DNA of 63,949 bases, the filler included, from Lenisia limosa (taxonomy: Eukaryota; Protista; Breviatea): NCBI GenBank assembly GCA_001655205.1. It is 21 parts of 21 records of this genome, joined end to end, with 100 filler letters (N's around TTAATTAATTAA, not from the genome) between each part and the next. Parts side by side here need not be neighbours in the genome. Positions count along the whole stretch, not along the records: positions 53,750 to 55,001 come from LPNZ01001762.1; 20 more parts are not named here. One strand, given 5' to 3'. Made by a program: the position numbers and the translations under genes. The notes beneath the pieces were generated by a model, which was not told where the DNA came from, did no database searches, and saw nothing but the letters and a program-made list of their open reading frames with translations. Each line of letters starts with the position of its first letter. The first letter of the stretch is position 1. Shown in pieces: positions 9,061-55,001 of this stretch.

Positions 9061-9404
9061 GGACGGTTTTTTGGGAGTAGGAGTGCGAGAGGGGCGAAAG
9101 GGTCTGAATTGCCTCTACAGTGTAAACAACAGGGATTACATCTCGTGTTTATTCAATTCTGTCTTGAAACAATGATGAAATATTCGACCATTGCTGTCTG
9201 TCAAACTCATATAGTACATATATTTCCAAAAAACTGAATTTTTAAGGATCAATCTCATATATTTTATTGCATTGTACACTTAACGTTTTTTATATCTCCT
9301 AAACTCAGCAAAATGGGATATTTCTCAATGGTTATCTCGAAAATTTAGCCATGGTTTGCAAAATCCGTTTCCATGAAGAGTGAAATTCTTGATAAAAATC
9401 ATAC

Positions 9405-9590
9405 ATGTAAATATGTGTTTTTTGAAACAAAATGTGTTTTTTTCGAGAGATATAAAAACAGTGTTTGGAGTCCCAAAATGAATAAATAAAACTAGTTTTG
9501 TAACAAACACACAAGTTGCAAGATGTACAAATGTTTAAACCAACTTGGTGATTGCTTAGGAGAAATTATATTATACAAGAAAGACTACAC
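9405..9590. repeat. Dispersed repeat family E, 5' part
   Basis: High similarity to 11303-11460 (AAACCAACTTGGTGATT...AGGAGAAATT...ACAAGAAAGACTACAC). Confidence 0.8.
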
Positions 9591-9721
9591 NNNNNNNNNN
9601 TCATTCTTAATAAGCGTGAATTTTGACAATACACGGGTACCAATTTTGAGAGTACCCGGGTATTTTTCGAACAATGAATATCTTGACAGAATAGGGCAAA
9701 CTTGTAAAAATATCAACACAG

Positions 9722-11094
9722 AAGTACACATATTCCTCCTACCTTGGAAATGGCTTGGGGGAAAGGGCAGTTAATGAATTTTTTTTCTATTATATTATTT
9801 GAGTGTGGGGGGATTTATCTGGTTATATCATATAGTAATATCATATTCTTGGGCTAAGCATTTGGAAACACCAAAGGGAGCAAAAACAACAACAAAACAA
9901 TAAAGACCCGGTTGGAGTTTACATTATGTTCTCTAATCGTTAGAAGAGAGTTTGGCCTCTAAAAACCTTTAACAACTTACTCAATTCAATATAATATGAA
10001 AAGATATACTATGTTGTATATGTAGGGCTTTACTTCGGTTCGAAAAATGACTAAATTTCTCGATTAATCCTCGAAAACTATGGGTATTTTGACTGTCTTT
10101 TTCAAACCAAACTGAAGCCCTATAATCTATATGTTCACTAATGTCTTTAGAGAGTTTGGCAAGGTCAAATCCGGCCGACATCTGTGTACCGGGAGGGAGG
10201 TGGGGGGGGGGGGGNNNNNNNNNNCGACTATTTAGATTGCTTCTTTGCGTCCTCTTCCACGACCACAAAGTTGTTTTTCTAGGATGAACACAAATATAAA
10301 GTCGCTGACTAGCTCAAAAATGACTTTAAACCGGTTTTTGANNNNNNNNNNTCAGGTTGCAGTGAAGATCATTAGCAAAGAAAAGGTCTCAGAAGACATT
10401 TTCATGGGTGAACATCTTGCTCGTGAAGTTGCAATTATGGTGGGAGGCGGTGCTGTACAGTCTCTATTGAAACTAAGATCATAGAGATCCAGCAGTTGAC
10501 TACAAAAGAGAACACAACATCCACAGAATACAACAGAAACAGGAGGATTTCATGCCTTTTTATTTCATAAGTTTCCATTTTTACTTCCCTCCCCCATTTC
10601 AGTCCTGCAGAAAAAACTAGACCATTTATGCTTACTTCTGCAGAAAAAACTACACCATCCCCTGATTTCATATTTTTCGTTTTTACTTCCCTCCCACCCC
10701 TTTTACTCCTGCAGAAAAAACTAGATCACCCGCATGTTATCCGTTTGTTCGACGTGCTGGAGGATGATGATTACGTCTACCTTGTGTCGGAATACGCCTC
10801 TGTTTGGGGGGAGGGTTAGGGTTAGTATTAGTTTGGGAAATCACACAACTCGGTTAAGAATTTTCCCGGTCACTGTATCTGGCCGAAACCGTTGACACTA
10901 TCGGTTTCATAGAACTGGAGTATTGAGATGAGAGACTTTTCATTTTTCCTATCATATTTATATTTTCATTTTTCCTATATTTTTTTGATTTGTTTGCTCT
11001 CATTATTCAGGGCGGCGAGATCTTTGATCTGGTTGTGGAGAACGGGCCAATGCCGGAGGAATTAGTACTGCGCGTTGCGCGCCAATTGTTGAGC
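9722..11094 (+). CDS. Ser/Thr protein kinase of CAMK/SNF1-MARK type, N-lobe exons (partial)
   Basis: Exons 10151-10199, 10356-10439, 10715-10801 and 11011-11094 splice in frame (phase 0): EFGKVKSGRHLCTGRE|VAVKIISKEKVSEDIFMGEHLAREVAIM|KKLDHPHVIRLFDVLEDDDYVYLVSEYAS|GGEIFDLVVENGPMPEELVLRVARQLLS. This covers the Gly loop, VAVK, alphaC Glu and hinge. Candidate upstream exon 9722-9753 (KYTYSSYLGNG) has a non-canonical junction. Confidence 0.92.
10025..10120. mobile_element. MITE family A copy with TA on both flanks
   Basis: TA|GGGCTTTACTTCGGTTCGAAAA...TTCAAACCAAACTGAAGCCC|TA. Confidence 0.85.
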
Positions 11095-11302
11095 GTGGGT
11101 TGGATGAAAACCATGCACCAGCACATATATACACTGTATACGATATTGCTGGTACATGATAAATGATGAAAATATACCGTTTCAGCGTATATTATGTATC
11201 CCAGTTATACAATATATTACATACCCCTCCCCGTTCTCAACCCTCATGTGTTGCTGCTAGCAATAAGTTTTCTAATATGGGTCATCGTATATCACACCAT
11301 TC

Positions 11303-11590
11303 ATAAATATGTGTTTTTTTTCGAGAGTTGCAAAAACAGTGTATGGAGTCTCGAATAAGTAAACGTAGTTCTGTAACAAATACGTTGCATACATGTTTAA
11401 ACCAACTTGGTGATTACTTAGGAGAAATTGTATTATATACAAGAAAGACTACACACAAGAGTTGTATCCTAAAACGGACTATTTAGATTGCTCCTCTGCG
11501 TCCTCTTCCACGACCACGAAGTTGTTTTTCTTGGATGAACACAAATATAAAGTCGCTGACTAGCTCAAAAATGACTTTAAACCGGTTTTT
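11303..11590. repeat. Dispersed repeat family E, longest copy
   Basis: Its 5' part matches 9405-9590 and its 3' part matches 10225-10341 (GACTATTTAGATTGCT...GACTTTAAACCGGTTTTTGA). Confidence 0.8.
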
Positions 11591-12399
11591 GAGAACCTTC
11601 TTTTTTAAAAAGAAACACGTTTTGTTAAAAAAACACATATTTATGAACGTATATCGATATAGTATATACATATGATATATATATACATATATCGATATAT
11701 GATATATAGTATATGTATATGACGNNNNNNNNNNACAAACCCTGTGAAAGAGGCTGGCCTGCAACCGCGCAATATGGCGTAGCCGTCGCGTTAGACCCGT
11801 TTTGGACCGTAATACCATGGCATTTGCAAACTGCGTCTTTTGTGTTCACATCAGGGACTGGTAAACTGACCTGTGGATTTTAGTTTATTTTTCATGGGGC
11901 TCCAAAAATTTGCATTTCCCTTATTTGGATCAGTATTTAGATCTACAATATTATCAAGGATATTCAATAGTGGAGCATTGTTGGATTGATAAAAATGAAA
12001 TGAATGATAATTAATTCAGAATTGCTCAAAACTCAATTGTTTTTTTAGAAATGGCGTGAAAAGTGTGGTATTAGGAAGCAAGTCATCTCGAAAGTTGACA
12101 TGTTGTTCTTTTAACTGTGTATTCGAAACGTATGGTGGTTATTGTTTCTGGTGTCCCTATATATCTTCTTTTATTCCATCGTTCTAACATCTGTTTTTCT
12201 TGCTTTGTAAAAAAAACTCGAGTATACATAAACGATAATCCATTACGGTAAATGGAGTTTTCTCCCCTAAAACGCTCCAATGTCTTCTTCCTTGTAACCC
12301 AAAATAAGTTCCTAATGCGCTTTATTTCCGTCATCTTATAAACAGATATTGTCTCAAAAACCAACATACCTGACTCTGCTCAAAGTGAAGGGAAACAGG

Positions 12400-15300
12400 A
12401 TTGAGAGCCGAGGAGTAGCGAATTTCGACAGTTTTCATATCAGAAAAGCTCTCCTGATAGAAGAATTCATGAAGCCATCTCTTGAAATGTCTGTCAAAGG
12501 CAAGGCGGTCTAAAGGGTAAAATACAGTTTTTGCTTTTTTTTATGGACGGAAAAAACAAGTAAGGGTTATGTTTCAGAATTGGCTGATAAAATATATGGA
12601 GTTGTAAGGTAAATGATTGGGTGAATTAATAGTATACTATAATTTAATCTTTTATAAGCGTGATGGTGCGGACGGCTTCGGCCAGATGCATCTTTATTGT
12701 TCATTGCTCTATGATATAATATCGATATGTAAAAAAATTTAAATTGACATTTGATGACAGAAAGTGACGCTTTTAAAGATACTTATTGGGGTTCAGTTTT
12801 GTTCTCAAAATATACTGAAGTTTTGGTGTATGTATTATCTATTTTTATCGGTCTATTCCGAAAGTGACACACTCCACACCAGGAGGCAATCTGAGAAGGG
12901 AGCAGTTGAGAATGTCAGCAGACATGGTGGTAAAGGAAGCAAGGTTCAGGTCGGCAATAGTCGATTCTTCTTCTAATGGGTGAGGCTTTTGTGGTGTTCT
13001 TGTGTAGATTGAATATTTTGTTTTTGAAATTGTATTAATATGTATAATATATTCAACTTTGATAGGTTCCTAAATTGGTAAGCAGGATCTCTCCACAAAC
13101 CAGGTGTTTTTTTCTCAGCCAGGTTAAGGAAGACGGAAGTATTGGAGACGTAATAAAAGACAAACTAAACAAATTAGATGGGAGTTTATGGTGCTTAACT
13201 CTTGGTTTTCAAAGACTGATGCCAGGACATTATTGATAAATATTATTATTTTCTATGACTTATCATATGATTGCTTCTTAAAAATAGTATTTTAATCGTC
13301 TTCACGCTCATAAATACCCTTATTCAAGAAAAACAGAAACACCAAGGGGTCAAATTGAGATTACAATTACATATCGAGCGCTATTGAACCCTTTATGATG
13401 GAAATTATCCTACCTCAATACTGTTTTCAAAGAGGTTGTTCAACTCCCTCTCCATTTCTTCTGAGGCTTCTGCAATCTAGAAGAGTTAATACATAAGTAA
13501 AAAGAGAGAAGATTACAAGAAAAGGATAAATAAAAATTGTGATTATATAATGGCTTTACTAACTTGTAAATGTGGAAATAGTCATCTTTTGCTAACAATA
13601 AAAACAAGAACAGAATCCCCAAAACCCGATTTGTTATGAGTGCTATTGACTTTGTTGGGCTAGAGGACAGCAAAGAAACTCTCGTGGCTACATCCGAAAT
13701 CTCTTTTCCAGCTACAAAACATCAGAGATCTAAATCAAAGTGGTGATCATATTCTTAATGATCTCAAAATCAATAAAAAACAATAGTATCTTTTATTTGT
13801 TCAGGCGTTTCTAAAAACCATTTAAACTTGATGAATGTATTGTGAAAGAATAACAAGCTATTTGAGAATTCAACTGAAAACACCTATGACAGACATGTCC
13901 AGCCACCAACCTATCTTCTCTTCAACCTTCTCCATTCCATTCATTTCAACACTCTTAACAATGTCTTCCAGCTTATGAATGAAAGCCGAGGCAGACTCTG
14001 TGGCAATGGGCGTTGCCCCAGCCTCGTCAAGAGTGATTAGGTGAAGCGTTTCATGAAATTGACTCTCAAGGCTGGGGGTTGACATTTGCAAGCCGTGAAG
14101 CACCAAAGCTTGTAAACTTGCGCATGCTGACGCTAATGACTTTCCCAGTAGCTCAGGATTGCCGCTACCACTGTCAATAAGGTCAAGAACAATGAATCGG
14201 TCCCTCATGGCGAAGGATCACTGAATATTTGGAGAAGATCAAGGGGGGAAGCTTCTTTTGTTTTTTAATCTAACGTTACTTCTTTCAATATAGTCGCTTA
14301 TATTTAATTAACAGGACAGAAGAATGAACAGAGACAGAGGCGTCTTTTCTCAAATAGGACTTGGACAGAAATGTGGCGTTTGCGCGCTGCCTTAAGGTTG
14401 CTTCTCCCAGCTCTCGTCCATACGATTCACCATTTTTGAAAGTTATTATTTATATATTTATACATTCATACATTTATACATCGTGATAGTGGAGAAAGGA
14501 AGCGCTGTCGTGACTGTGGTCCTCACTAAGCCCTGATCAATCAAGTAGGCGTCCCCCTAGTCTTGCTGTTGAGGTATTCGAATCTTATATTGATAAAATG
14601 TTTTTAGCTTTCTCTGGTAACACATTCTTCTTCTCCTTCTCTGCAATCCATCTTTCAATTTATATTATTATACCCTTGACCTCCCATGACCCATGGAGCT
14701 GTCATGTACAAATATGTTATGTATATATTTGGCTCACCCCCTTCACCCATTATGTTTATATGTTTGTGGTTAATTTTTTCCCCAATACAATGGCTTTTTA
14801 AAAACCAAAATTAGGGGAAAAGTAACAACCAGAAGAGGGTAGTATTCTTGTCAAACATCTTATTTACCAACAAAAGGGATAGAAAAGTATTTATATCCCC
14901 CCCCCCCCCNNNNNNNNNNNNNNNNNNNNNNNNNNNNNNNNNNNNNNNNNNNNNNNNNNNNNNNNNNNNNNNNNNNNNNNNNNNNNNCTTAGGAAAACTT
15001 ATATTTTTGACGACTGCCCTCAACTGAGCACAACTTTCTTCAAAGAGTTTTTAAGCCCCCTGCCTTATTCTTGATATTGGACATCTGCACCATGGTCAAC
15101 AAGCACAACTTGAACTTGGGAAGAAATCTTAATTTTGTTTTGACCACGATAGTTTGTTTTGTGTTTTTTTGTGATGAGGTGCTCAGAAGTTTTTTTCTAT
15201 ATCATATAGTATGATATACAATATAGTAATATATATATGATATATATTGTCAATCCCTCGATGTTTCCCAAATGCTTACTCCCCCTTTTCTCTTCTATAC

Positions 15301-15614
15301 AATTATCTATTTTGCTTGGGACGGCTCTAAGCGTTATTATAGGTTGCGACCATTAATAAGTCTTTTTTTTAACATTTCTCTTCACGCTTTACAGGTATGT
15401 TTGGTGATCGAGTGGTAGGACTCTTCAAAAGCTGGCTCGGGCTTGGCTTCCTATTTGAACGATAACATAGCATGTCATTTCCTTTCACCAAGAGCGTATG
15501 AACTGTTGTCATTTGCTTAGGAGAAAGTAGACAAGTCCGCTTGCCTCTTGGTTGACTAGCGGTGGTTTTAGGAGATATTTCTATGTCATAGCACTCTGTG
15601 CATTTGCATTCCAT
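12400..15614 (-). CDS. Multi-exon gene of unknown function (partial, approximate)
   Basis: Open exon-like blocks: ~12400-12510 (RLAFDRHFKRWLHEFFYQESFSDMKTVEIRYSSALNP), ~12880-12975, ~13885-14205 (DRFIVLDLIDSGSGNPELLGKSLASACASLQALVLHGL...), ~15400-15614. Confidence 0.5.
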
Positions 15615-15863
15615 AACTCAGACTCAACATTCCAATGTCAATTGAGCGTGAAAATATCGAAAATTTTTGAGGATACCGAGAAAAGAGCTTCACTCAATTG
15701 AAGTTATTAATTTACGAATTAATTGGCCTTTTTACTAAGTAAAATGTAATTGCCAATTAATGTACATCTATGTATGTAGGAATACGCACCGTGTCTCATG
15801 TGACATCAGCAAATATAAAGTACATGGGAAATAAACAAGAAAAAAAACACTTCACTACTCTCC

Positions 15864-17281
15864 TCAGGTCTTGCGTCTCGTTAAATGGTCGAACAGCACG
15901 ACTTGGACATACTCCTTTGTTTTGATCTCGTATCGCACACTGTTGTCTCCGGGTGGGCTCTACAGAGTTAGTTTTTGAGTGTGAGATCATCATATGAGAG
16001 TTTCACTTTCGGTTCCAAAAAAGACTAAATTCTTGATAAAGCCTATATAAATATATAGAATATTTTGTTAGTGTTTAGGAACCGAAAGTGAAGCTCTTGC
16101 CATAATCTACAAATACGTGGATGTAGAAACGGGTAGTACACCATCATGTATAAAGAGACATTTGATTATAGTAAAATATTAATGCACGCAATCATTTGCC
16201 TGACAACTCTTTGTACACAGATTTCTTAGTGCTTAGATATGAAAGTGCGATTCTCGTGAGAATTTCATTAACACTGACCGCGATAAGTCCTGATACGATT
16301 GACGAAAGATGAAGCTCAATATCCGTGTCAGGATTAAACGCGGCCAAGTGTATAAAGTTCAATATCGGTGCAATCAAGCCTACTTTGGGGTCAACGTTTA
16401 TCACTTTTCGGTCTCTTTTGTTCTTAAAAAGCAAACCGGAGGGGTCGTCAGCAATAACCTGTGGGGACAGGGGTTACAAAAAAAAAATAATATATATATA
16501 TAGATATATATAAAAGGAAATTCAATTCTACCATATTTACGAAGTATCCCTATATAAAATAATAACACATAGTAGATGAGAAACAAAACAAGGTTGCACA
16601 CGCTGATAAGAGAGTATTGGGTTTAGTATAAGGTGAGAAATCAAACAAGGTTGTATCTGGCCGAAACCGTCCACACCATTACGCTTCTAAGAGATAGTAT
16701 TAATTCACCCAATCATTTGCCTTGTAACTTGCATACCTGGAAATTGGGTGTGGGGTTGGAGGTGGAGGCAAGGGTTTCCCAGTTGAAAAACCTTGAACAA
16801 TTAGGGAAAATAAAATTCTTGCGGTAACATGAAAATAAAGGGTGTTTACTGTTTTTGTCAGATACTTCTGGTCGATGCACCTCCTTATGAGCGATATTGA
16901 TTGATGCAAAAAATAGGAATACTGCTGTTGATAGAAGACATTGTAATGTAATTACATGTAGGATGTGAAATAAATAACAAGGTTGTATCTGGCCGAAGCC
17001 GTCCAATCNNNNNNNNNNNNNNNNNNNNNNNNNNNNNNNNNNNNNNNNNNNNNNNNNNNNNNNNNNNNNNNNNNNNNNNNNNNNNNNNACGCTTTTGGAA
17101 CCGAAAGGGAATTATTTGAAAATTAAGTTCCCACTCACGAGAGATCTGAGGCTCTCGGCATGATTCGTTTCTTCCGAGCAAAGTAGAGGGCAAACTGGTC
17201 CGTTTTGAGACGATGGGCAATGTCGATGTAGGCTGAAACCTCTTGACCCTTGGCATTCTTGTCTCGGATGAATGCGATTGT
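15864..17281 (-). CDS. CFAP299: Cilia- and flagella-associated protein 299 (C4orf22/DUF4464 family), 3' four exons
   Basis: Exons 17281-17139, 16791-16737, 16458-16384 and 15959-15864 splice with canonical GT-AG in frame: [122 protein letters not shown]. Matches the recalled family motifs [17 protein letters not shown] and PGDN..DH.TRRK. Confidence 0.9.
16576..16730 (+). repeat. Dispersed repeat family D (GAGATGAGAAATAAAACAAGGTTGTATCTGGCCGAAGCCGTCCACACCATCACGCTT...TAATTCACCCAATCATTTGCCTT)
   Basis: About 16 partial or full copies, e.g. 1062, 12600-12700(-), 16965, 18400, 28180-28250(-), 48490, 49025, 50180-50240(-), 55320, 56405, 62620-62775. No obvious TIR. Confidence 0.85.
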
Positions 17282-17556
17282 CTGGGGGGGGGGGGGNNNN
17301 NNNNNNNNNNNNNNNNNNNNNNNNNNNNNNNNNNNNNNNNTTAATTAATTAANNNNNNNNNNNNNNNNNNNNNNNNNNNNNNNNNNNNNNNNNNNNGGCT
17401 CATCCCATCTACACTCCTTCCTCTAATATCTTTTCAACCCTCTTCCTCTGGCCATGTAGTCAACCTCACCCCGCCTGCACCGCCATATTCAAGGTTGATG
17501 ATGGAAGTGGTCCGTTCCTCTGGCCATGAAGTCAATTTCACCCCGCCTGCACCCAC

Positions 17557-25934: not shown

Positions 25935-27717
25935 TGTAGGGGGGTGAAGGGAGAGGAGAGAGAGACCTTAAGCAAGAATAGAAGAGAGAAATACGTCATC
26001 TACATTTAGTGTAAGTAACTCACTATTCAAAACAAAACTCTTGAAGATTTCAAAATACAAGCAAGGAAGCGTTTTTTGGGAGAATGTTTAGCCAGGGGTT
26101 ATATCGCTGTTTTCATAATATTCAGGGGAAGAACGAGGGATTTGAAAGTGCCCGTCTCCCCCCACCGAAGATGTCCATTTTAGGCCTCCCTCCTCAGGTC
26201 AAGAAGGACCCCGAAATGCCCAATCAGCAGCATCAGTCCCTTCTCTCAGTTGGCTTGGGTTGTCTGTGGTGTTTTGCCAGCGTAATCTTCATATATCGTG
26301 TAAAACATATAGTATATCATTATGATACATATCATTATAGATAATACTATATTACAAGATAACACGATATCTTACATAGCTTTGTGAAGATACTACCTTT
26401 TCATTTCTTTGCCTGAAAATACCCCCCCCCCCCNNNNNNNNNNNNNNNNNNNNNNNNNNNNNNNNNNNNNNNNNNNNNNNNNNNNNNNNNNNNNNNNNNN
26501 NNNNNNNNNNNNNNNNNNNNNNNNNNNNNNNNNAAAAGTGAGCACTTGGAAGAGTTCAATCATTTCAAATAAATTTATTTTAAAAGTTGGGATTTTATTA
26601 CTTCTCTCAGTTTGTTTTGTGTTTCATATATTATCCTTCGCATGTCAATGTTGTATTTCATCTAAAGTTTTCATTTTGCATTGATAGCTTACATAAAATG
26701 ATTTCGTTTTGAAGTTTAGGCTTTCGGTTTTCTCAGATTTTTTTTCACCCCTCTAGCCAGCCCCAATATATTTATAGCATTGGAAGGAAGATGGTCTGGT
26801 GAGTATAGTGAGATTAAAGGCATAAATGTGTGTATTGTTGTATTTTCGTTCTCTCTTTTTTTGAAAAAAGCTTCTTCTAAATATTGTCAAATAAAATGTC
26901 CCAACCTTCTGTCTGTGAAAAAAACGAAGAAAAATGAATAAATAGCCGCTCCACTACGTAAGGTACCCCACAGTCCCTGTTTATTTGGGGTCGTTGGCCC
27001 CCACCATTCGCCGCACCCCTGAGAGCATATTCTGGAAATGTTAGCGACATGATGTGGCCGAGAGGATGAGAATGAAGGAACATATTATGAGTGGGGGGCG
27101 GGGGAGAATACCACAGGTATGAGTTGTATTTAAATTTGTCTTTCAATTATAACAAGAGTAGAAATGAGAAATAGTTTATCCATGTGAAAATGAAGAAAGA
27201 AATGATAGTTCATCCTTGGGAAAATGAAATATCCACTCCACCAGTCAAAACCCTTCATTATTGTTACCCCCCCCCCCCNNNNNNNNNNNNNNNNNNNNNN
27301 NNNNNNNNNNNNNNNNNNNNNNNNNNNNNNNNNNNNNNNNNNTCGAAGTTCGGAGGGAGATCAAGGACTCCAAATGCGCCGGAATGTAGGTCTTCTGAAA
27401 GGATGATTAAGAGGACAAAATAATATGTAGTCCAATTGTATTGTGAATAAAAATACTATTTCTATATCATATAGTATACTATACATACATGTATATATCA
27501 TATTAAAATGCGTTTATAATAAAACAGTACATAAAGGGAATATTGGTCTTCTTAAAGCAGGCCGCTAAACCAGAATGAAACCTCGGAGTGTAGGGATTTC
27601 CTTATGGATTTAGGGTACAGCTTTTGACTACTTTTAACCAAAATTCATGGATTTGGGGCTCGGTTAATGAATCGGGTGTGGAGACCTGCTTTAATAGGGT
27701 ACTTAAGGAAAATCCAT

Positions 27718-27960
27718 ACTCCATACAAACCTAATGGTCCCTTATCAAACGTCCTTACTAATTCTCAATACAAACCTAATGGTCCCTTATCAAACGTCCT
27801 TATTAATTCTCAATACAAACCTAATGGTCCCTTATCAAACGTCCTTACTAATTCTCAATACAAACCTAATGGTCCCTTATCAAACGTCCTTACTAATTCT
27901 CAATACAAACCTAATGGTCCCTTATCAAACGTCCTTACTAATTCTCCATACAAACCTTAT
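27718..27960. repeat. 45-bp tandem repeat, ~5.3 near-identical units
   Basis: Unit TACAAACCTAATGGTCCCTTATCAAACGTCCTTACTAATTCTCAA. Open in two + frames (e.g. YKPNGPLSNVLTNSQ). Confidence 0.95.
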
Positions 27961-28279
27961 TGCTGTTCATCCAGTGATGGAATGTTTCTTCGTCCATTTC
28001 ATATGCCTTCACGTACATCTTCACCTGAATTTGTCAGGAGAGTAAAAATGGAACAGTTATGAAATAAAAAACAACAACAATAACAAAAAAAGAGCCCAAA
28101 ATCAACTCTGCTGGCTATGTATCCGAGTGTACTGTTTCACCTAGTCTTTTTTGAGAGAGTTGATGCATTATACTATAATCCAATATCTCTTACAAGCGAT
28201 GGTGTGGACGGCTTTGGCCAGATAACCTTATTGTATTTCTCATTTCTACATCCGCAAAATATTCTGATATACTATAATA

Positions 28280-31271: not shown

Positions 31272-32526
31272 CAGTGCTCCAGATGAATAGCTGCACTCAT
31301 GTCTTTACCTCGTTTTAGAGTCTACTACTATCATTTTTAGTTGAAAAATTGTCAGGTTGGAGCTAAAGACTCCAAGTTTATGTTTCCAAACTCGATTTTT
31401 AAAAAATGAAGTGAACTGATTTTTACTTACCATATATAAAAATGTTCGAATATTGGATGTTTTATGAGGGAAAATTAACAAAATAGACAGTGTGAAATAC
31501 GGTTTTGGCGCGCTTGTAACTTTGAAATACAAGTTTTGGCGCTCCTGTAATTTACGGTGACTCAATAAATATATTAAAAAAATTACGGATGACAACCGAT
31601 AAAATGAACTCTTGCACGTCGGAACTTTTTTCATCGTCTCTATCATGGTGGAATGAAAAGTCCAAAACAAATGTGGCGGTTAGTCCACAATGACAATTCA
31701 TCTGTCAACCAGCTGTATAAAGTCTGATCAAGGTCTGAAGAATGTTGGAAAATCACCCATGAGGTGGGAAAACCTTCTGGAAGGCATCGGGCCACCACTT
31801 CCGATCAAGATCAGATGATTGTGTCAACTGTCATGGAAAAACCAATGCTTCCACTTTCCAAACATGTGAATACTCTTCGTTCTCTTGGTAATGTCTCATC
31901 TTTTATCATTGCGGCACGTCTTCATGAGTCGAATATTTATGCTTTTCGACCATTGAAGAAACCTCTCATTTCCGAAAAAAATCGTGTCCATCGCCTCCAG
32001 TGGGCAAGAGAAAGACTCAATTGGACTGTTAATCAGTGGAATAAAGTTGTTTGGACGGATGAATCAAAATTCAATCTCTTTAGACCAGATGGAAATATCT
32101 TTGTATAGAGACCAGCGATCCCAAAATGGCAATGCATCTTGTGAAGATGTTTTGTTTGAAAATCTGAAATCTGCTTGGAATTATTACAAAAGGTGAAATC
32201 ACGACTCTCATTGAATCTATGCCGAGACGCTGTGAAGCTGTAATTCGTGTAAATGAAGGTTCTACCAAGTATTAATAAGGGAAAGATTTCAAAATTCCAG
32301 AAAACATTATCTCATATAAACCTTCATATACGAAAAGGGGCCGAATAGTAACAAATTCCTTATATGGTAAGTAAAAATTTGTTCACTTCATTTTAAAAAA
32401 AAGCGAGTTTGGAAATATAAACTTGGAGTCTTTAGCTCCAACCTGACACTTTTTCTACTAAAAATAACAATAGTAGACTCTAAAACGAGGTAAAGACATG
32501 AGTGCAGCTATTTATCTGGAGCACTA
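31272..32526 (+). mobile_element. Tc1-family DNA transposon, internally deleted and non-autonomous, ~165-bp TIRs, TA target duplication
   Basis: TA|CAGTGCTCCAGATGAATAGCTGCACTCATG... at 31272, with its inverted copy ending ...CTGGAGCACTA|TA at 32526. Arms match through TTACTTACCATATA. Confidence 0.93.
31764..32275 (+). pseudogene. Tc1 transposase remnant (HTH region + first catalytic Asp; central DDE segment deleted; frameshifted C-terminus)
   Basis: RPLKKPLISEKNRVHRLQWARERLNWTVNQWNKVVWTDESKFNLF..DG, followed within ~120 nt by LIESMPRRCEAVIRVNEGSTKY* (Tc1 C-terminal signature). Confidence 0.92.
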
Positions 32527-34340
32527 TATATTTTTGGATTACAACATGCAATCACGTATTTCTAGGATTCAACATTTTTTGGCTTCTATGATTCGCTACA
32601 CTCAATTTTCTTGATATGATTGGTCATGTATCAGTATGACCAGGAAACCGATGGCAACGTCCTCTTCCAGCGAGTCATTGCTGTTATCGAGTTATGGTGC
32701 AACCTGCCTTCGGCAAACACGAAGAATTGGTCGAGCTGGCTTCCAAAAGAACCAGACCAATTGGTTTCAAAAACCGGAGTAAGTAAATATTACCATGTAT
32801 ATTTGACTGTAGACATAACATGCTATGCCGCTGCATGTATGCAGTGTTTCAAAGCTTTTAATGCTTTCCTCAGTGTTTCGAATATTGATGTAAGTTAATT
32901 TCTTCAAAGACCTTGACGCTACAGAGCACTTTTTTTCTACAATGAAGTCAATTGAGCCATTTACCTCGATGTGGCTGAGGTACACGACAGTAGCCTCATT
33001 CTGCAACATTAGGAGGATGCTCCGATGGATTCGCTGAATACAGACCGATCTGGTGTGTCGGTCCACCCGGAGTTGTAAACCTCATGGCAAGAGTGCCTGG
33101 GCAGATATGGAAAAGGCCAAGCAAAGCCTGGTCATACTCCCGTATAATTCCTTAATAAAATCAGCAGACAACAATAAAATCTTTTGCCCCAGAAAACACC
33201 TTGATAAATCCATCTCAGTACGTATGAATTTCCCTTGAGTTTATTTCTGCAGCAGAAACAAGTTGGCTGCTCCTTTGTCACTCCCGTAATTGTATAATGA
33301 AAACAACTTAAACTCTGAATGTGTTTGTCACTAATAAAGTATATATTAACACATTAACACCTAATAATAGTGGCCAGGGGCTCGCTGCTTCGACAAAGGT
33401 TCGCCAGGGGGAGACTTGGATTGTCAGACCCTGTACTTTTTTTTACCTTTATACTAGCTGTGTATTTTGGCGGCTAAGGCGAGCTCCAAGAAGAAATCAG
33501 GGTAGACCACTGTCGAAAAATCAATCCGAGCCTAAAATATTTGAGTACTCTTCTAGCTTCCCTAGCATTAAAACGAGATTGGAAAGGTCCGGAGAGGTAG
33601 CGATATAGCAGTGGAAGAAGGAAGAGAGGGACGATAAAAAGAGGCAAGGGAAAGCGTAGTAACTCTTTAATGCTCTACTGACATTTAAACTGGTTAAATC
33701 ATTTAGTATTGAAGTAAATTGGATAAAAGCAACTAAATCCTCCAGAATTCAAACTCAACATGTACTCAAAGCAAGTTCTGCTGCTCTGTTCTTGACAAGT
33801 TCTGGCCGTCTCAAAGTCTCAAAGCTTTGAACTGACTTTGAAATTCGTATCTATACGCAAACGATACGAAGAGAGACAGCTAATCTCCTTTTAATCTCTA
33901 AAAGCTCAACTGGAAGTGTTTTGCGAGGGAGAAAAAGCCTTTTGAGGGCTGACTCAAGTCTAACTCCCTAAACATTATCTCACTGCACTTTTAATCGAAT
34001 ATAGCAAACATAAGGAAAGCGAAAATTGATCATAATATACCATTTCAATCTCGGTTTAATACATTAGAGGTTATGCGAAAAACTTGCTCCCATAAACTTT
34101 GTCGGAAGTAAAAACTTTCCGCTTCCGAAGGCTTCCGGCAAGGAAAGCCTCTGAAAAGCTTATTTTGAAAACAAGTTTTTTTGGCAACTTTCTCGTCCTC
34201 GGATTGTCCTCAGTTATATTAGAGTTGTCCCTTCTTCTCCTCCATTTCTCTTCCAATAATCAATATTTATTACTGGATATCAAATATATAAGTTGTATGT
34301 TGTATAATAAGCCTATCATCATTGACATTATTACAATAGG

Positions 34341-34560
34341 ACTTTATCTCCATTCACACCACCTTATCTTCATTCACAACACTTTATCTTCATTCACACC
34401 GCTTTATCTTCATTCACACCATTTTATCTCCATTCACACCGCTTTCTCTCCATTCACACCACTTTATCTCCATTCACACCACTTTATCTCCATTCACAAC
34501 ACCTTATCTCCATTCACACCACCTTATCTCTATTCACACCAAGTTATATCCATTTACGAA
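34341..34560. repeat. 20-bp minisatellite, 10 units plus one degenerate unit
   Basis: Consensus ACTTTATCTCCATTCACACC with exact 20-nt periodicity. Confidence 0.95.
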
Positions 34561-35918
34561 ACTAGCTTATCCAAATTTAAATACGATTGTTCCTCTGCTT
34601 AAGGTTGTGTGAGTTGTTTGTGTTTTATTACCCACTTCTAAGAAGAATGAATATAGATTGTGTTTGTGAGTGTTATGCATCATAGATTATGATTTTATGA
34701 TTTCGGTAATGTATGTGTAAAAAAATATATCCACTGTTGTGTATATATAGTTTTACTAAATACATATATATGATATATATATAATATTGGGACAAGTGGT
34801 GACCCAGGTGGTAGGGTGGTAGTGCATGATTTAGTGAATTGAGCGGCGAAGAGAACAAACCCAAAAAACCTCAACACCCTCCAGAACACCAGACACGCAA
34901 CCACTTTGAAAAATAATAATAGCACCCTGCCAGAATCCGCTGATTACAATATTATTTGATCTTGCCAAGAATAAATAGTTTTTGGTGGCGGTTTTGGCCA
35001 CAAAAGGTTGAAATAAGGCGGTAACGATTATCATCATCACATTTCAGTTCACATTATTAGATAATAATAAGCAAATAATCAAATAATTGGCAAGTGTTCG
35101 TATCTCATTGTAGCGAGTAGTCACTCATGCCTTCTTTCTGCACAGCCCCAGAATGCCAGGGCATGGTGTTTCTCTCTGCTGAAGCTCATCATTTTCACAA
35201 ATGGCAGTCACAGTGCAATGGAAAAGCTATTAGTATGAGTTGGGAATTGGGGGGGGGGTAGTTTGTATTGTTAACTTTTCAGACAAAGTCAACCAGGAAG
35301 CTACTGCTTCAGCTTATGGTGGGTGGGACTTTATTTTTATTATTTTTTGATGGACAATGATATATACAATATCAGATGAAGAAAAATAAAACATATAGCC
35401 ATAGCTAAGTCCATCAATGGAGAGTATCTCTTCGGTTACGAAATACTGCAACACCGGAAGGGGACAGGTTTGATTAAAAATTTCCGTTAATGTTTGAGTT
35501 TATTGCAAATCCCGAGGAACTGAAGGAATCTGCAAAAAAAGAAGAACCCACCCTATCAGGGTGGGGTCGTTGGCCCAACTGCTGAAATAATTGATTAGCT
35601 GAAAAAAAGCAAATGACTCCAAAAGTGAAGAAGAAAGAACACAACCAAAATCACTACTACTCGAAAGGTCAAAGCTAAAAAAAAGTAATTTATTTGAAGA
35701 AAACAATGCAGATTTGTATCCTGACGTAGGTCCCCAGTTGTATCATGAGTCTTTCTCAACTCCAAGTTCCCCAATTGTGAATCATGTTTCTTCCTTATCA
35801 AAATCGGGTAGAATATTTNNNNNNNNNNNNNNNNNNNNNNNNNNNNNNNNNNNNNNNNNNNNTTAATTAATTAANNNNNNNNNNNNNNNNNNNNNNNNNN
35901 NNNNNNNNNNNNNNNNNN

Positions 35919-37785
35919 CAGTCAAAACACCTTCAACAACCGTCATATCTCCGTCGATCTTAGTGATCTGAGGCTGGAGCTGCCTCATGGCTGTGGACTT
36001 GCTTGCCTGTAGGGATCAGAAATGCAATACAAGACAGAGTATCAGCGAGGTAGAGTGAGGAAGAAGAAGAAGTAGAAGCAGTCTGCGGGGTCTCACCTTA
36101 GTAGTACCTGATCTGGAAGTGAAAGCAGGGGCAACAGCGGGTGCAGATACACGGTTGATGGCGGTGACAGATACAGTCGCTGGGACCTCAGTACCGGTAA
36201 CGTCGCGAGCAACAAGCNNNNNNNNNNNNNNNNNNNNNNNNNNNNNNNNNNNNNNNNNNNNNNNNNNNNNNNNNNNNNNNNNNNNNNNNNNNNNNNNNNN
36301 NNNNNNNNNNNNNNNNNNNNNNNNNNNNNNNNNNNNNNNNNNNNNNNNNNNNNNNNNNNNNNNAAAAAACAAAAAAAAACGAGAGAGGAACAACTCGCAT
36401 ATTCTGTTATCTCATGTTAGTTAGAACAGACTCATCACTGCACCTCCAAGCAACTCGCATACCTTGACCTTTCCGTCAACATTCTCAACCTCAACAGTAA
36501 CGGGCTTAGGGAGTCGAACGAGAGCAGCAACAGCAACCTAGGTGTAAGAGAAGAAAAGGAAATGGTGCACCTATTTCCTCGGTTATTACATTCCAGTTTT
36601 TACATCCAACCTCTACCATACTAATTCCCCCCACCCCCCAACAGTAACACAATGGGCATCAACATAGTTGTCCATCTTGGCAGACTCAAGCGTCTTGGCA
36701 ATGGAAGAGAAGACCTGATGGGACTTAAAATTAATCCTGAAAAACAAAGGTTACTTTCTTCTTTGTATTATCAGTCCACCTTACCTTGGAGCCCTTCTTG
36801 AGAGGCTTCTTTGTGGCAGAGGCGACGCTGTGGAGACCTGACAGAATACGGGATGTGCCACAAACGTCATCAACATCAATGTTGGGTACAATGCTGCGGA
36901 ACTGAAAAGGTGATCCAATCATTAATCATACTGCATTATGTTTTTTAAAAAAAAACAAGAGCTATATTATTCAAACACCACTCACAGCTTCACGGATTTC
37001 AGTCAGCTTTGAAGCAGTGGAGGGTGCAAGACGAGCAAGTTTGCCAGCGGCCTAATTAAATGGTCACGTAATGAGGACAAGGCAAAATCAATAATATTAT
37101 TCTATTTCACTCTTCCATGTTAACATTTAACTGACACATAACAAAGGCAGCGCAATAATATAAAAATAGATGTAACAATTTTACTCTTCCAAAAGACATT
37201 GTGAGGGGAGGGGGACAAAGCATACAAGAAGGAGATATCCGGTTTCAGTGGTATCAGATACGGAAGACGACAGGACAGACATGACCTTCTCGTTCAATCC
37301 CCAGGCGGCAACATCACAATTGACCTGGAACAAGTGAGAAACTTTTTACGAAATACACTGCCAGGATAAAACTGCGAACCTCATGGCAGGCAAAAAGAGC
37401 AGCATAGATTTCAGTGATTTTCTTTGACTTAGCAGCTTTCGTGAAAAGAGCCTCATAGTTGGTTTCAAATTTGCAGTCCAAAGCCTTGTTAATGGCAACG
37501 GCGTAGAAAGCTTTCATTGCAGAGTTCTGAGAAATTTTGGCAGCGCTGCAAAGCTTCTGTGTGATGGATTTATCGAGCACAACTTCATTTTTCTGGGACA
37601 TCTGAATGGTTAGAGCGATTTCCCCCAAATAAAAAGCCAAAAGAAAAACAGCATAAGGGATCCTAACCTTAAGAAGGGCATAACCATCTTCTAAATCATC
37701 AAACTGGCCCTCTTTAAGCGCTGAAATCAACTGAGTATCAAACTCAATATTGAAATAAGCAGACGTGAAAGCCCACACCATGCAA
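35919..37785 (-). CDS. Multi-exon gene, unknown protein (distant resemblance to ribophorin II, not established)
   Basis: Open exons with GT/AG ends, e.g. ~37375-37585 (KNEVVLDKSITQKLCSAAKISQNSAMKAFYAVAINKALDC), ~36785-36900 (FRSIVPNIDVDDVCGTSRILSGLHSV), ~36465-36538 (VAVAALVRLPKPVTVEVENVDGKVK), ~36100-36217. Confidence 0.6.
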
Positions 37786-39384
37786 AAGAGGAGTAAACTC
37801 CCTGTGAAAGAGTAAGTTCGCTGGATATACGTGACTCAAGGCTTACGAAGGAACATAGTGAATGAAAAAAATGAACGCACTCAAAACAATCTAGTTAGTG
37901 ACAATGTCAGATTACAGTTTATTTCCCTTTAATATGAGGCTTTAAATACGAAAAGATACTTTTTTTTCAAAATTTTCAATATGAAACAATCCGGCGCCGG
38001 GGCAATATTTGAACCTCTAACCACTCCCCCCAGCTCTCTTCCCAAGGCTGTGTAATTTGAAATGGATATAAAAATTGTATTGATTTTCTTCGACAAATAA
38101 TTGAAAATCGTGAAAATTTTTGTGATCACATTCCACACTCTCTTTTGCTCCTTTCATTAAATCTTGGCATCTTACGTCCACCATGCCCCGTCCGTCAGGT
38201 GCATGTTTATCATGCAAAAAATTGAAACTGAAATGCTCGTAAGCTCAGACTTTTCTTTGATTTCTCGTTGTTTTTTTTATTTATTTATTGAATTCTTGAA
38301 CTGTTCTTAAGTGTTGAAATGTACAGTCATAATTTTAGGGGTCCTCCCGTATGTGATCGATGTGAGTCAAAAGGAAAAGGTGATGAGGTTTTATTGTAAC
38401 CCACTTAGAATGTGTATTTACCCAGAAAGTACTGTCAGTGTATAACCAGAAACAGAAACAGCCGATATTGCGTAGCAAGTGAGCTGAACGCGTTTAAAAT
38501 TTCACATCACTCTACAGACAGACAATCCAGCTCCAAGGACAGAATTCGGCCAACAACAGACTTCAACTTGCTTCTCTTAAATTCCAACATTTCAGTTTGA
38601 ACCACTGTTGTTTTATGCTTAGGCCTGTGTGAAATATTCAATCGAATTCTTTACGGCTTTGAAGTGAACATCCAAGAGCTTGTCAAACCAACTTCTTTCG
38701 TATTGTTGAATCTCTAATTTAGGGCGATTTGTTCTTGTCATATGTAATGTCCTATGGAGGAATGCGGTTCTTTTCATGTCAAAATGAGGCACAAACGTTT
38801 GTTGACTCGTATTATATTGTATTATTTCAACACCATAATTATTTCATAGGATGCTCCGAGCTGCGTTTTCTTTCCTTGAGGTACTGACAAAGTCTATTTT
38901 CCCACACTTACAACTCTTGCTTGATGTAACAATNNNNNNNNNNNNNNNNNNNNNNNNNNNNNNNNNNNNNNNNNNNNTTAATTAATTAANNNNNNNNNNN
39001 NNNNNNNNNNNNNNNNNNNNNNNNNNNNNNNNNAACCTGTATAAAAAACGACAGTGTGCGAGACGAAGAGTTCCGAACCGAAATCCGCCGCCGCTGAGCC
39101 AGGCCCTCAAATCGGATCTGCCAAGGGTCACGTTTTGGTTTTGGGTTATAATACCTAATTAAAGACCGTCTCTTACTTTGAAAACAAAATTAATGGGTGA
39201 CCAGTAACAAAAGTTTGAATATATTATCCTTATGTTTGTTTTGTTTGTATTCTTAGATGGTAAAATATAGTGTGTTTTCAATTGTTTGCCAAATTCTATT
39301 GCCACATTTCACAGTCATCAAATTTCATGAAAATTCCCAAAAAAAAACCCAAGACATGACATAACCCATAGTCCCCATCACACC

Positions 39385-47070: not shown

Positions 47071-47221
47071 CTGAGGGAAGTAAAATTGGAAAATTGATGA
47101 AACAAAAAGAATACTAAAAAAAGCCGAAAATCAATTCTGTTTGCTAATAGCGTCCACGCCAGTCGCTTATGAAGCACCGCATTAAATTAATATATTATAT
47201 ATTAACTATATATCATATAGG

Positions 47222-47592
47222 TTGGTGTTTAAAACCGCGAACATGCTCACCCCTACTACTCTCGATATCTTGGCTGAGGAGAACATAATCCTCTTCCTTC
47301 TCCCTTCCCACACTTCTCACGGCACCCAACCACTCGATCTTGTCACCTTCGGGGCGTTCAAGTCAAAATTGTCTTCAATTCTTGACCGCATCTCAAAGCC
47401 CATTGAAACAAGCAACAAGTCCCTTGGCCTTCGAGTGTTACTTCTTGCTGCCGGACTCTCGGCACTTTCCCAAGCCCTTGATCCTCTTTCCGTTCAAAGC
47501 GCTTTTGAACGTGCTGGTATCTTTGGGAATGTACTCACTTCAGACGAACCCAAGATTGAGATCCGTCCTTCTGTCCTACTCCGTCGCTGTCT
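47222..47592 (+). mobile_element. pogo/Fot1-type DDE_1 transposase C-terminal fragment (open frame, truncated by scaffold end)
   Basis: NIILFLLPSHTSHGTQPLDLVTFGAFKS...VQSAFERAGI matches the pogo signature LP.HTSH.LQPLD...F..LK...I...F...GI. Confidence 0.85.
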
Positions 47593-49144
47593 NNNNNNNN
47601 NNNNNNNNNNNNNNNNNNNNNNNNNNNNNNNNNNNNTTAATTAATTAANNNNNNNNNNNNNNNNNNNNNNNNNNNNNNNNNNNNNNNNNNNNCCGCATCC
47701 CATCACTCGGGGGGGGGGCAACCCAAATCAACTCTTTTGGACAAGCATATAGGAAACACAGGAGTGTTTTCGAAAAAGAACATTGAGAAGAGGAAGGATA
47801 TACTAATTATTGTTTTTTTTTTGTTTTTTTTTTTCAATGTGTTAACTGTAATTTCTAACGCAATGATATTATCCCTCAAATCCACTCGTTTTAAAAAAAG
47901 CCTCAACCAAGATCGTATCAGAGAGCTTTGTATTCTCACAAAGGCTGAGAATGATCAAAAAAAGGTTGTCAAAAATGAGCATCAGCAACAGTCACTGACT
48001 AGGAAAACCAACTGAAAACCATTCTTCTTAGGCATAAAGCAATAACTAAGGTGTTTTATGGAAGGGAAGGAAGGTGGTGAGAACTAGATGGGAAATAAAG
48101 AGTACACCAGAAGGCAAACTCAAGACCACTGCTCCCTCCTTGGCTATCTCGCTTCTTAATAGCTTTAAGCCGTTTAATGATCGTTAAACAAGAGCTCAAG
48201 AGCGCTCACCTGGCTAAATTACACGAAGCACAGCGGTATCATATTGCGTTGTAACGGACGGAGACTTCTTTGATGTAAAGTAAACTATTGACTATCCTAC
48301 ACCTGTATATAGCAATATGATCAAAGAATACACCCAGATGAAAAAGAAAGAAGGAAAGAAACAATTAAAAAATGACAAATAGTGAGTGATCTTAAGATCT
48401 GTTTTTTGTGTTTCTTCTTTTTTATTTTACCAGCTAAACCGGAAGACGTAGTAGGGAGTGTAAGGAGATGAGAAATAAAGGAGCTAAAGAGTATCTAACC
48501 TTGATCTGACCGAAGCCGTCCAGACCATAACACCATCACGCTCGTAAAGCAACTCGTATTAGACTATTATGAAAGTTGTAATTTTGACAAACTGTTTATT
48601 GAAATTGTTTTGATCTGATGTGTAATATTCCCTCGGTAGAATACGTGCGAATTGTACCATAAGACTGCACTATTACAACCACAACTTCCCCAGCACTCTG
48701 AAGATTCAAATAATGACGAATAGAAAACGCGGGTGATAAAATACAAGCATATATATTGGACCTTAGAATTACAGACTTATTTTTCCTCGGATGACATCTC
48801 GGAAATGTCTAAAACGTTACAGAAGATGATGCGAAGGGTAAACGAGTTTTTACAGTATTTNNNNNNNNNNNNNNNNNNNNNNNNNNNNNNNNNNNNNNNN
48901 NNNNNNNNNNNNNNNNNNNNNNNNNNNNNNNATATTTATCAATATTATATTGATATTTTATCGATATTTCATCGATAAATCCGGTCTTTTCGGGAGCGTA
49001 GGGAAACCCTACCTTGAAATATACAGAGATGAGAAATAAAACAAGGTTGTATCTGACCGACATCACGCTTGTAATAATTCACCCAATCATTTGCCTTTCA
49101 AATCGATTCTTTTCCTAATAACATGTAAAACACCCGCATACCCG

Positions 49145-53749: not shown

Positions 53750-54014
53750 TATATTGATTTTCCAATTGTTTATCTTTGTTGAATATAATTAATAACTTAA
53801 CCAAATCATCATCACCTTTAATCATCTTATAATTTCCATCTACTCTGGTACAGTATTCCAAATATGTTTTATTAAATTCTTTTTCAAACCGTTTTATCTT
53901 TCTAATAGCTTTTACCTTTGTCCAATATAATTTAAATCTTCCATATCCATTTACTACAGGGGTTGATATTGTATTCAAAAATACAACAATAATTAAAATT
54001 GTTAATGGATCCAT
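53750..54014 (-). CDS. Intronless hypothetical protein with N-terminal hydrophobic segment (virus-like scaffold; 3' truncated)
   Basis: MDPLTILIIVVFLNTISTPVVNGYGRFKLYW...; open to the scaffold end. Confidence 0.6.
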
Positions 54015-54064
54015 TTAAAGAAGAAATAAATTAAAAAATTATTTCATTATTTTATTTTCCATAA

Positions 54065-54328
54065 ATGACTACCAAGATTTGTAAGACGTGTCAAGAGGAA
54101 AAAGATATTTCAAACTATTATGCTAATAATAAAGAGAAAACAAGTTACAAACCAAATTGTATAACTTGTATCAAAAATAAAGTCGTTGTTCGAAAAGACT
54201 TAAATAATAAAGTATGTAAAACTTGTCAAATATTACTTCCAATTGGTGATTTCTATTTTAATACTAAATCTAAGACCACTCGAAAACCGAATTGTAAAAT
54301 GTGTATGAAAGTACTGCGGAAAAATTGA
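54065..54328 (+). CDS. Small protein with two tandem CxxC-x22-CxxC Zn-binding repeats (virus/Polinton-type)
   Basis: KICKTCQEEKDISNYYANNKEKTSYKPNCITC and KVCKTCQILLPIGDFYFNTKSKTTRKPNCKMC. Intronless, 87 aa. Confidence 0.8.
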   Translation: MTTKICKTCQEEKDISNYYANNKEKTSYKPNCITCIKNKVVVRKDLNNKVCKTCQILLPIGDFYFNTKSKTTRKPNCKMCMKVLRKN

Positions 54329-54390
54329 TGGTCGTTTTTTAATCTTTTTGAAAAAAATATTTTTCACTTTTTATTTTCCTAGAAAGAACG

Positions 54391-54915
54391 ATGACCAACT
54401 CTACCAAAATTTCTCAAGCTAAAATGACTGAACCTCTTATTATTCAAAAATTTGAATATGAAATTAAAAAAGTTGAAGCAAAGGATGTTTCAGTTGTTGA
54501 TGATATTGATGAAGTAGATATTTTCTCGGATGAGGTTAAAGAAGAAAAGGAACAAGATATTGACTATAATAAATGTCCCATAATATTTGTTCAGAATAAA
54601 GAACAACATAAAAATAAATCTGAAGATAATTCTTATTGTACATTTACATATGATATGCGACGTGGGTTAACAAATTGTATTCGAAATGATAGAGTTCTCA
54701 AAGAATATTTCAAAGACTATATTGTAGAAATTGAAAAAGATAAGAAATTTACTGATGAAGATAAGGAAAAATCTAAAAATCTAATTAAGGAAATTGTTAT
54801 GTTAACAAACTCTGGTAAAATGAAAATTAGATTTACAAAAGGAAATGAATGTGTAACTGATAATAACTACAAAAAGTATTACTGGAATTTTAAAATTGTT
54901 TTGGCTAAAAAATAA
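54391..54915 (+). CDS. Intronless acidic/Lys-rich hypothetical protein, 174 aa (virus-like scaffold)
   Basis: Uninterrupted 525-nt ORF in very AT-rich DNA with short intergenic spacers. Confidence 0.75.
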   Translation: MTNSTKISQAKMTEPLIIQKFEYEIKKVEAKDVSVVDDIDEVDIFSDEVKEEKEQDIDYNKCPIIFVQNKEQHKNKSEDNSYCTFTYDMRRGLTNCIRNDRVLKEYFKDYIVEIEKDKKFTDEDKEKSKNLIKEIVMLTNSGKMKIRFTKGNECVTDNNYKKYYWNFKIVLAKK

Positions 54916-54970
54916 ATTGTGTGAAATAAAAAATTAATAAAATGAAAAAAATTATTTTTTTATCTCTAAA

Positions 54971-55001
54971 ATGACAACCTTAATTGAACTCCCCATCGAA
55001 A
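54971..55001 (+). CDS. Start of a fourth ORF (MTTLIELPIE..., F-box-like start), truncated
   Basis: ATG preceded by the same upstream motif as the other ORFs; only 10 codons visible. Confidence 0.35.

Follow-up and report, generated by a model that had tools for sequence, protein, structure and literature searches.

A compact, AT-rich scaffold

The window analysed here, a stretch of 63,949 nucleotides from the Lenisia limosa assembly GCA_001655205.1, strings together 21 small scaffolds with N-flanked linkers in between; most of the scaffolds derive from an intron-bearing eukaryote. One of the scaffolds, LPNZ01001762.1, carries four short, closely packed and intron-free genes on 1.25 kb, the fourth being represented by its start only (Table 1). 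This arrangement agrees with a preliminary description of the locus, which listed three ORFs and the start of a fourth, a divergent ORF1/ORF2 pair, and short spacers, found here to be 50, 62 and 55 nucleotides long. The frames of ORF1 to ORF3 represent real genes, as relatives with 75-79% identity preserve each frame in its entirety. At the left end, a 615-bp contig from sequencing run X1 extends 275 bp beyond the scaffold. No capsid, ATPase, polymerase or integrase gene, terminal repeat or host junction lies on the 1.25-kb scaffold, in keeping with the initial impression that no hallmark gene is visible there, and ORF1 to ORF3 match no family of pPolB, primase-helicase, rve integrase or tyrosine recombinase. 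The double jelly-roll capsid protein, penton and A32-like ATPase of PLVs, the cysteine protease of virophages, the Nucleocytoviricota core genes (PolB, RNA polymerase, VLTF3, A32, D5) and the terminase, portal and HK97 capsid genes of tailed phages are likewise missing from it.

The GC content of the scaffold is 0.244, compared to 0.358-0.456 in the other 20 scaffolds of the window, and is lower than in any of 558 host windows cut to the same length, in which it averages 0.390 (sd 0.028) and never drops under 0.325, bearing out the description of the scaffold as very AT-rich. ORFs cover 0.84 of its length, a value reached by none of 1000 Markov-resampled sequences, whereas none of the 20 other scaffolds exceeds 0.58. 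The scaffold had also been described as unlike every other one in the set. This holds for GC content and coding density, but not for G/C runs of 8 or more, which are likewise absent from 7 of the 20 other scaffolds, nor for the host-repeat markers (three motifs that we selected), which are all absent from 5 of the 20; both features are lacking in 2 of the 20. The raw tetranucleotide correlation between the scaffold and the rest of the window is 0.90, within the range of 0.72-0.98 for host scaffolds, so the scaffold is not singled out by this measure.

Table 1. Positions of the features discussed in the text, counted along the window.
Feature	Position	Strand	Description
Whole scaffold	53750..55001	.	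AT-rich, intronless, gene-dense; 24.4% GC; both ends open, between two linker blocks
ORF1	53751..54014	-	residues 1-88 of a 111-residue protein; ~20 hydrophobic residues at the N-terminus; no family
ORF1/ORF2 divergent spacer	54015..54064	.	50 nt, 10% GC; box at 54033
ORF2	54065..54328	+	87 aa; basic, histidine-free; four-cysteine module (beta4-alpha2-like) twice in tandem
ORF2-ORF3 spacer	54329..54390	+	62 nt; box at 54351; recognisable in the source sequence of P0009
ORF3	54391..54915	+	174 aa; N-terminal half acidic and modelled at low confidence; alpha/beta domain at the C-terminus (~residues 82-171) conserved
ORF3-ORF4 spacer	54916..54970	+	55 nt; box at 54946; TCTA right before ORF4 start
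ORF4 start	54971..55001	+	10 codons, cut by scaffold end
High-copy host repeats	9741-10580, 12261-13100, 16461-17296		very high copy
Protein kinase exon	10571-10816	+
DUF4464 gene	15801-17281	-	at least three introns, spliced in X2; introns overlap high-copy repeats
Tandem repeat arrays	27628-28059, 34096-34609		long open frames kept
Tc1/mariner-type transposase fragment	31728-32105	+	Pfam HTH_Tnp_Tc3_2, E 5e-12
Ribophorin II exon	37317-37835	-	N-terminal domain
Possible pogo-type DDE_1 transposase fragment	47186-47593	+	E 0.0024, below cut-off

Most of the remainder of the window belongs to an intron-bearing eukaryote, with the features listed in Table 1. Pfam searches of the window frames gave matches for 4 of 17 at E<1e-4, namely Ribophorin II, a kinase exon, DUF4464 and pieces of a Tc1-type transposase, and Rfam gave no match within the window. 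DUF4464 is presumably a ciliary protein, and hence we take the host to be a flagellate. In the poly(A) run X2, splicing is seen at 15959-17137, where the joints end in CT..AC when read along the plus strand. The host repeats reach a summed X1 contig depth of 14,649, versus ~35 for unique DNA, consistent with the MITE-like family noted in the preliminary description.

ORF1 and ORF3 are orphan genes

The ORF1 product is 100% identical, across its 88 residues, to the 111-residue protein P0006, and 77% identical to P0007. Its residues 1-24 have a Kyte-Doolittle 19-residue mean of 1.55-1.72, suggesting that the N-terminus is likely a membrane anchor or signal. Nothing at a useful level was found for ORF1 in Pfam, PHROG or NCBIfam; a PHROG match to a small terminase (E 0.009) does not recur with the relative P0007. 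The best PDB sequence match is the minor capsid protein P15 of PBCV-1, a protein that carries a membrane-inserted N-terminal arm, but with an E value of 0.25 the match is at chance level and is considered as a lead only.

For ORF3, a profile search of 1.84 billion protein representatives returned three matches: P0004 (75% identity), P0008 (51%) and the fragment P0009. Structural models of ORF3 have mean pLDDT values of 48.7 and 49.8, with the C-terminal domain partly modelled. With these models, Foldseek found no match in BFVD at E<=0.001, and no fold stands out among 48,161 chains in VIA-align (best Z 3.4). Two candidate identities were rejected, the first being an XLF/XRCC4 look-alike in the Atlas, with scores of 0.81-0.83 that are at chance level, and the other troponin C in the PDB, where the matches are confined to the acidic stretch (E>=0.17). 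No ORF3 relative was found in the JGI metagenomes or in PLSDB.

Taken together, the relatives of ORF1 and ORF3 amount to five singleton ENA/MGnify proteins, one of which looks decayed, and neither gene has a relative in IMG/VR, GTDB or INPHARED, a phage, viral and prokaryotic search space of 50,697 phage records, 2.9 million viral contigs and 185,579 prokaryote genomes. P0004 is encoded together with P0005, a relative of ORF2, on one 6,036-bp contig. P0008 is encoded on an ENA contig of 11,215 bp; no longer contig with an ORF3 relative is known, and hallmark genes are most likely to be found there. P0009, encoded on a 3,300-bp contig, reads on across the spacer between ORF2 and ORF3, has no start codon for ORF3, shifts frame and ends at an early stop. 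From its sequence P0009 looks like a decayed copy, an assembly error being possible.

Best matches to bacterial or organellar genes, which the preliminary description had named as the finding that would speak against a viral origin, did not turn up. There are no GTDB relatives of ORF1 or ORF3 that would support a bacterial chromosome as the source. An organellar or code-4 origin was also rejected, as both Trp codons are the standard TGG and ORF2 stops at a TGA, with P0005 ending three residues later.

ORF2 is a predicted zinc protein resembling nuclease N-termini

ORF2 contains two CxxC...CxxC repeats that lie 45 residues apart and are identical at 18 of 38 residues, confirming the tandem CxxC repeat protein of the preliminary description. 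The cysteines are found at positions 6/9/32/35 and 51/54/77/80 in ORF2 (P0002) and P0005 alike. All eight are kept in P0005, where histidine is likewise absent. Both proteins are basic, and in ORF2 K/R residues outnumber D/E residues by 20 to 6. Each repeat has the two CxxC pairs, ~23-26 residues apart, that define a beta4-alpha2 module. Matches are found by several tools, including Pfam His_Me_b4a2 (E 5e-4, below the cut-off), PHROG endonuclease N-termini (best E 6e-12), and, in the PDB, residues 71-114 of Hpy99I (E 0.027), with the nuclease-profile matches falling mostly in the N-terminal, non-catalytic part. The general-base histidine of a His-Me finger is absent, there being no histidine at all in P0002 or P0005, and ORF2 is thus not an HNH nuclease; with no nuclease domain either, its assignment as an HNH or endonuclease VII enzyme was rejected. 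ORF2 is instead predicted to be a zinc-binding, DNA-binding protein. In Hpy99I, as outlined in PMC2699513, a structural zinc ion sits in the first repeat, which also makes the contacts to the major groove, and all catalytic residues reside in the second repeat.

In the preliminary description, the CxxC repeat was taken as a mark of Polintons and Polinton-like viruses (PLVs), virophages and giant viruses. This was not confirmed by the searches, in which the PHROG, Atlas, INPHARED and IMG/VR matches were all phage. For instance, the five Atlas clusters listed for the module (98-160 aa, score 0.94-0.95) have Uroviricota as their commonest phylum, and the repeat occurs in 9 INPHARED phage records, mostly annotated as HNH or endonuclease VII. 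In IMG/VR it occurs at 10 loci (L001-L003 and L052-L058), none of which is on a contig named as a giant-virus MAG; the 9 loci with inspected ORFs all look phage-like (for L002, ORFs were counted only), and the zinc module is the sole feature these loci have in common with the scaffold. Tandem modules are present in 7 of 7 phage-like loci, phage-likeness being judged by eye from ORF content. Because the profile, Atlas and locus matches point to tailed-phage proteins, the repeat cannot carry an argument for a PLV or a giant virus. PHROG and INPHARED cover prokaryotic viruses only and IMG/VR is phage-rich, and absence from eukaryotic viruses is therefore not implied; the cysteine repeat may also be present in eukaryotic viruses. 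A limited literature search found no description of this repeat in PLVs, from which we make no claim of absence.

A shared box in the spacers

The sequence AAAAAA[AT]TATTT is found at positions -32, -40 and -25 before ORF2, ORF3 and ORF4, and nowhere else on the scaffold; in 57,250 bases of host sequence the box occurs a single time. None of 2000 dinucleotide shuffles had the box in all three spacers, a count to be read with the fact that the motif was picked after the spacers were seen. A motif-free test of spacer similarity was marginal, with 22 of 500 shuffles attaining the observed score. Closer to the genes, ORF1 and ORF2 both start with TAAATG after a T-rich run, and ORF4 and the second ATG of ORF3 sit in TAAAATG, although the composition alone gives a 6-15% chance per spacer of TAA or TAAA ahead of the ATG. 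TCTA precedes one of the four starts (ORF4), and CCTA precedes ORF3.

Neither the promoter motif AAAATTGA nor a Shine-Dalgarno-like word is present before any of the four starts. Neither sigma-70-like promoter sites, of which there are 12 against 9.5 +/- 3.1 after shuffling, nor terminators, of which there are none, show enrichment. The absence of Shine-Dalgarno words is compatible with a phage, as they precede only 1 of 20 and 0 of 12 ORFs in the phage loci L001 and L002.

The box was also sought in other viruses. The pattern of the third spacer has no match in IMG/VR, and a box-plus-start pattern has 48 single matches with no systematic use of the box; among these are 11 giant-virus-MAG loci, with the box before at most one ORF in each. 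Across 51 viral loci the box lies ahead of at most two ORFs per locus, and a stricter box pattern has no match, the window included. T-rich leaders fail to separate giant-virus-MAG loci from phage loci lacking Shine-Dalgarno words (127 and 38 ORFs). Our literature search, with the same restricted reach, found no description of this box, and again no claim of absence is made. For ORF1, ORF3 and the box there is no match in the collections searched, whereas the kind of element to which they would belong is already known.

Several versions in one sample

Run X1 contains 0.78 of the sampled words of the scaffold and may be its source. Three contig pieces unique to this version have depths of 24.3, 17.5 and 29.4 in X1, and host depth is 23.2-37.9 in the 7 listed of 1483 records on the scaffold at 4701-17296, most of the 1483 lying on repeats. 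This version is thus present at roughly the contig depth of single-copy host DNA, although contig depth is not a copy number. A second version, spanning ORF2, the spacer and the ORF3 start, is present at a depth of 115.2 and has 20 differences in 140 bases of ORF2. Of its 11 listed codon changes, 5 are silent and 6 are replacements, all 6 of them to the P0005 residue. As P0005 matches a variant within the run, P0004 and P0005 are best regarded as a sister copy and not as independent support.

The X1 contig pieces branch exactly at the starts of ORF2 and ORF3, where short shared nodes have depths of 45-146. In addition, loose ends at 54939, 54962 and 54971 arise where two other X1 contigs seem to share the stretch ahead of ORF4; beyond it, they would meet an ATG after no more than 9 and 3 letters and open different frames (short matches at 85% likeness, among the pieces listed). 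This is a hint that other X1 contigs share the pre-ORF4 leader but enter different reading frames. The stretch 54800-54925 is without an X1 contig, to which we attach no weight. No RNA data set is listed as containing the scaffold, and the one partial contig of poly(A) run X2 that matches it is under 90% identical and has no bearing on expression. At least two versions are thus present in X1; multiple non-identical versions in a sample and a GC offset from the host, here 24% versus 39%, are typical, though non-defining, traits of PLVs and Maverick/Polinton elements.

Origin of the scaffold

The scaffold looks and behaves like a fragment of an endogenous PLV or virophage, and is not placed in a named family. 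In the reading that we prefer, to which we give an even chance, it is the accessory-gene region of a multi-copy endogenous virus of the Polinton-like/virophage type, resident in a flagellated protist. The virus would likely be integrated as several diverged copies in the host genome, with each gene transcribed singly, and not as an operon, from a leader made up of the box, a T-run and TAAATG or TCTA. ORF1 would be anchored in a membrane, and for ORF2 the prediction is that it coordinates two zinc ions and reads the major groove in the manner of the first Hpy99I repeat; as it cannot cut by the HNH mechanism, it is probably a regulator. The copies would likely diverge, recombine at the shared gene starts and decay, and a short-read assembly of such copies would break into small stand-alone scaffolds, in agreement with what PMC10120064 describes for endogenous viruses of protists.

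The preliminary description had proposed an endogenous or co-sequenced virus, citing the cysteine repeat. That basis was not confirmed, but host-like depth, diverged versions, a decayed-looking copy, the shared box and the lack of bacterial or organellar best matches lend circumstantial support to an origin of viral type and to an association with the host sample. The compact intronless genes and the narrow distribution of ORF1 and ORF3 also speak for the preferred reading. The depth weighs little in this list, since coverage-based binning would give host-like depth to any passenger. Against the preferred reading, the scaffold shows neither a hallmark gene nor a terminal repeat or a junction with host DNA, its GC content is below that quoted for virophages, and its ORF2 module matches phage proteins only.

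That last point speaks for a tailed phage or prophage. The scaffold would then be an early or accessory region whose host is an AT-rich bacterium without Shine-Dalgarno sequences, living in the same culture and co-binned. Phage early regions can contain small genes that each follow a repeated box, every tool match of the ORF2 module is a phage protein, Uroviricota being the commonest phylum in the five listed Atlas clusters, and its tandem arrangement recurs in all seven phage-like loci. We nevertheless judge a phage unlikely: ORF1 and ORF3 have no relative in any of the phage, viral or prokaryotic collections searched, bacterial promoters and terminators are not enriched, and several versions together with a decayed-looking copy would better suit a resident family. 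An origin from a giant virus (Nucleocytoviricota), whether endogenous or sequenced along with the host, is improbable to a similar degree. Here the versions would be strains or paralogues, and the leaders would be read by a cytoplasmic viral RNA polymerase, for which the low GC, the 50-62-nt spacers and the TAAATG starts after T-rich runs, which resemble the poxvirus late promoter as given in PMC5294985, can be cited, along with the chance-level match of ORF1 to P15. However, TAA or TAAA before an ATG has a fair chance from composition, AAAATTGA is missing from all four leaders, the box is not used repeatedly in the 11 giant-virus-MAG loci, ORF3 has no significant BFVD fold match, and IMG/VR, giant-virus MAG contigs included, holds no relative of ORF1 or ORF3.

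A more ambitious proposal, which we regard as decidedly unlikely, is an undescribed lineage of endogenous DNA viruses in a little-sampled flagellate, with gene families missing from the viral collections searched and with its own promoter box, read by an unseen giant-virus polymerase or controlled by the two-module zinc protein, a nuclease-derived repeat turned regulator. Least probable of all is that the scaffold belongs to a capsid-less mobile element (a linear cytoplasmic plasmid, a transpoviron-like element or transposon cargo) or to a second compact, AT-rich eukaryote. A shared box upstream of each gene is typical of cytoplasmic linear plasmids, the sister contigs are 3-11 kb long, and the scaffold shows no capsid gene; on the other hand, neither ORF3 nor the scaffold has a match in PLSDB, which is a bacterial set. 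Ordinary eukaryotic housekeeping DNA would also not be expected to pack three orphan genes, unrelated to one another, at a coding density of 84%.

If the endogenous PLV/virophage-type origin is correct, the scaffold adds one more host and two orphan gene families to a widespread class of integrated protist DNA viruses. Specialists would find little unexpected in the fragment by itself, elements of this type being well documented. Its value lies in the unseen remainder of the element and in the identity of a helper virus, if there is one, that reads the box, and the three longer sister contigs and the promoter-like box provide a handle for recovering the whole element.

Comparison with known systems

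The closest counterpart of the ORF2 modules is Hpy99I, which, in the description of PMC2699513, has the same spacing of CxxC pairs, and whose ORF2-aligned residues 71-114 overlap the groove-contacting first repeat. The N-terminal zinc modules of phage HNH and endonuclease VII proteins likewise have two CxxC pairs spaced as in ORF2. ORF2 differs from both in that nothing but the two modules is present, histidine and a nuclease domain being absent, and the match is modest. For the gene starts, the poxvirus late promoter, as presented in PMC5294985, has a T-rich core followed by TAAAT(G/A), similar to ORF1 and ORF2. This is a resemblance only, TAAATG being expected fairly often in spacers of 90% AT.

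The endogenous PLVs and virophages of protists described in PMC10120064 are defined by a major capsid protein (MCP) gene, which is frequently accompanied by pPolB or primase-helicase, an integrase and terminal repeats. The scaffold shows none of these, and no protein homology to the scaffold ORFs was found for the elements as that account gives them. As portrayed there, they are nonetheless similar to the scaffold in their GC offset from the host, in the several non-identical versions per sample, in their recovery as stand-alone short-read contigs, and in their poor sequence conservation. The EMALEs of Cafeteria burkhardae, together with mavirus, offer a further comparison. EMALE GC content is 30-53% in PMC8547959, and that of virophages is quoted as 27-51%, so that the scaffold at 24% lies below both ranges; it carries no mavirus-like gene, TCTA precedes only one of its four starts, and its main box is different. 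Within what PMC8547959 reports, the likenesses are low GC, short genes and a motif shared between upstream regions, and in type 4 EMALEs the TCTA of the mavirus/CroV motif is found in an AT-rich context, as it is before ORF4, which is again a resemblance. Promoter motifs of giant viruses are also found in a PLV, PgVV-14T, according to the summary in 10.1101/2022.07.28.501842.
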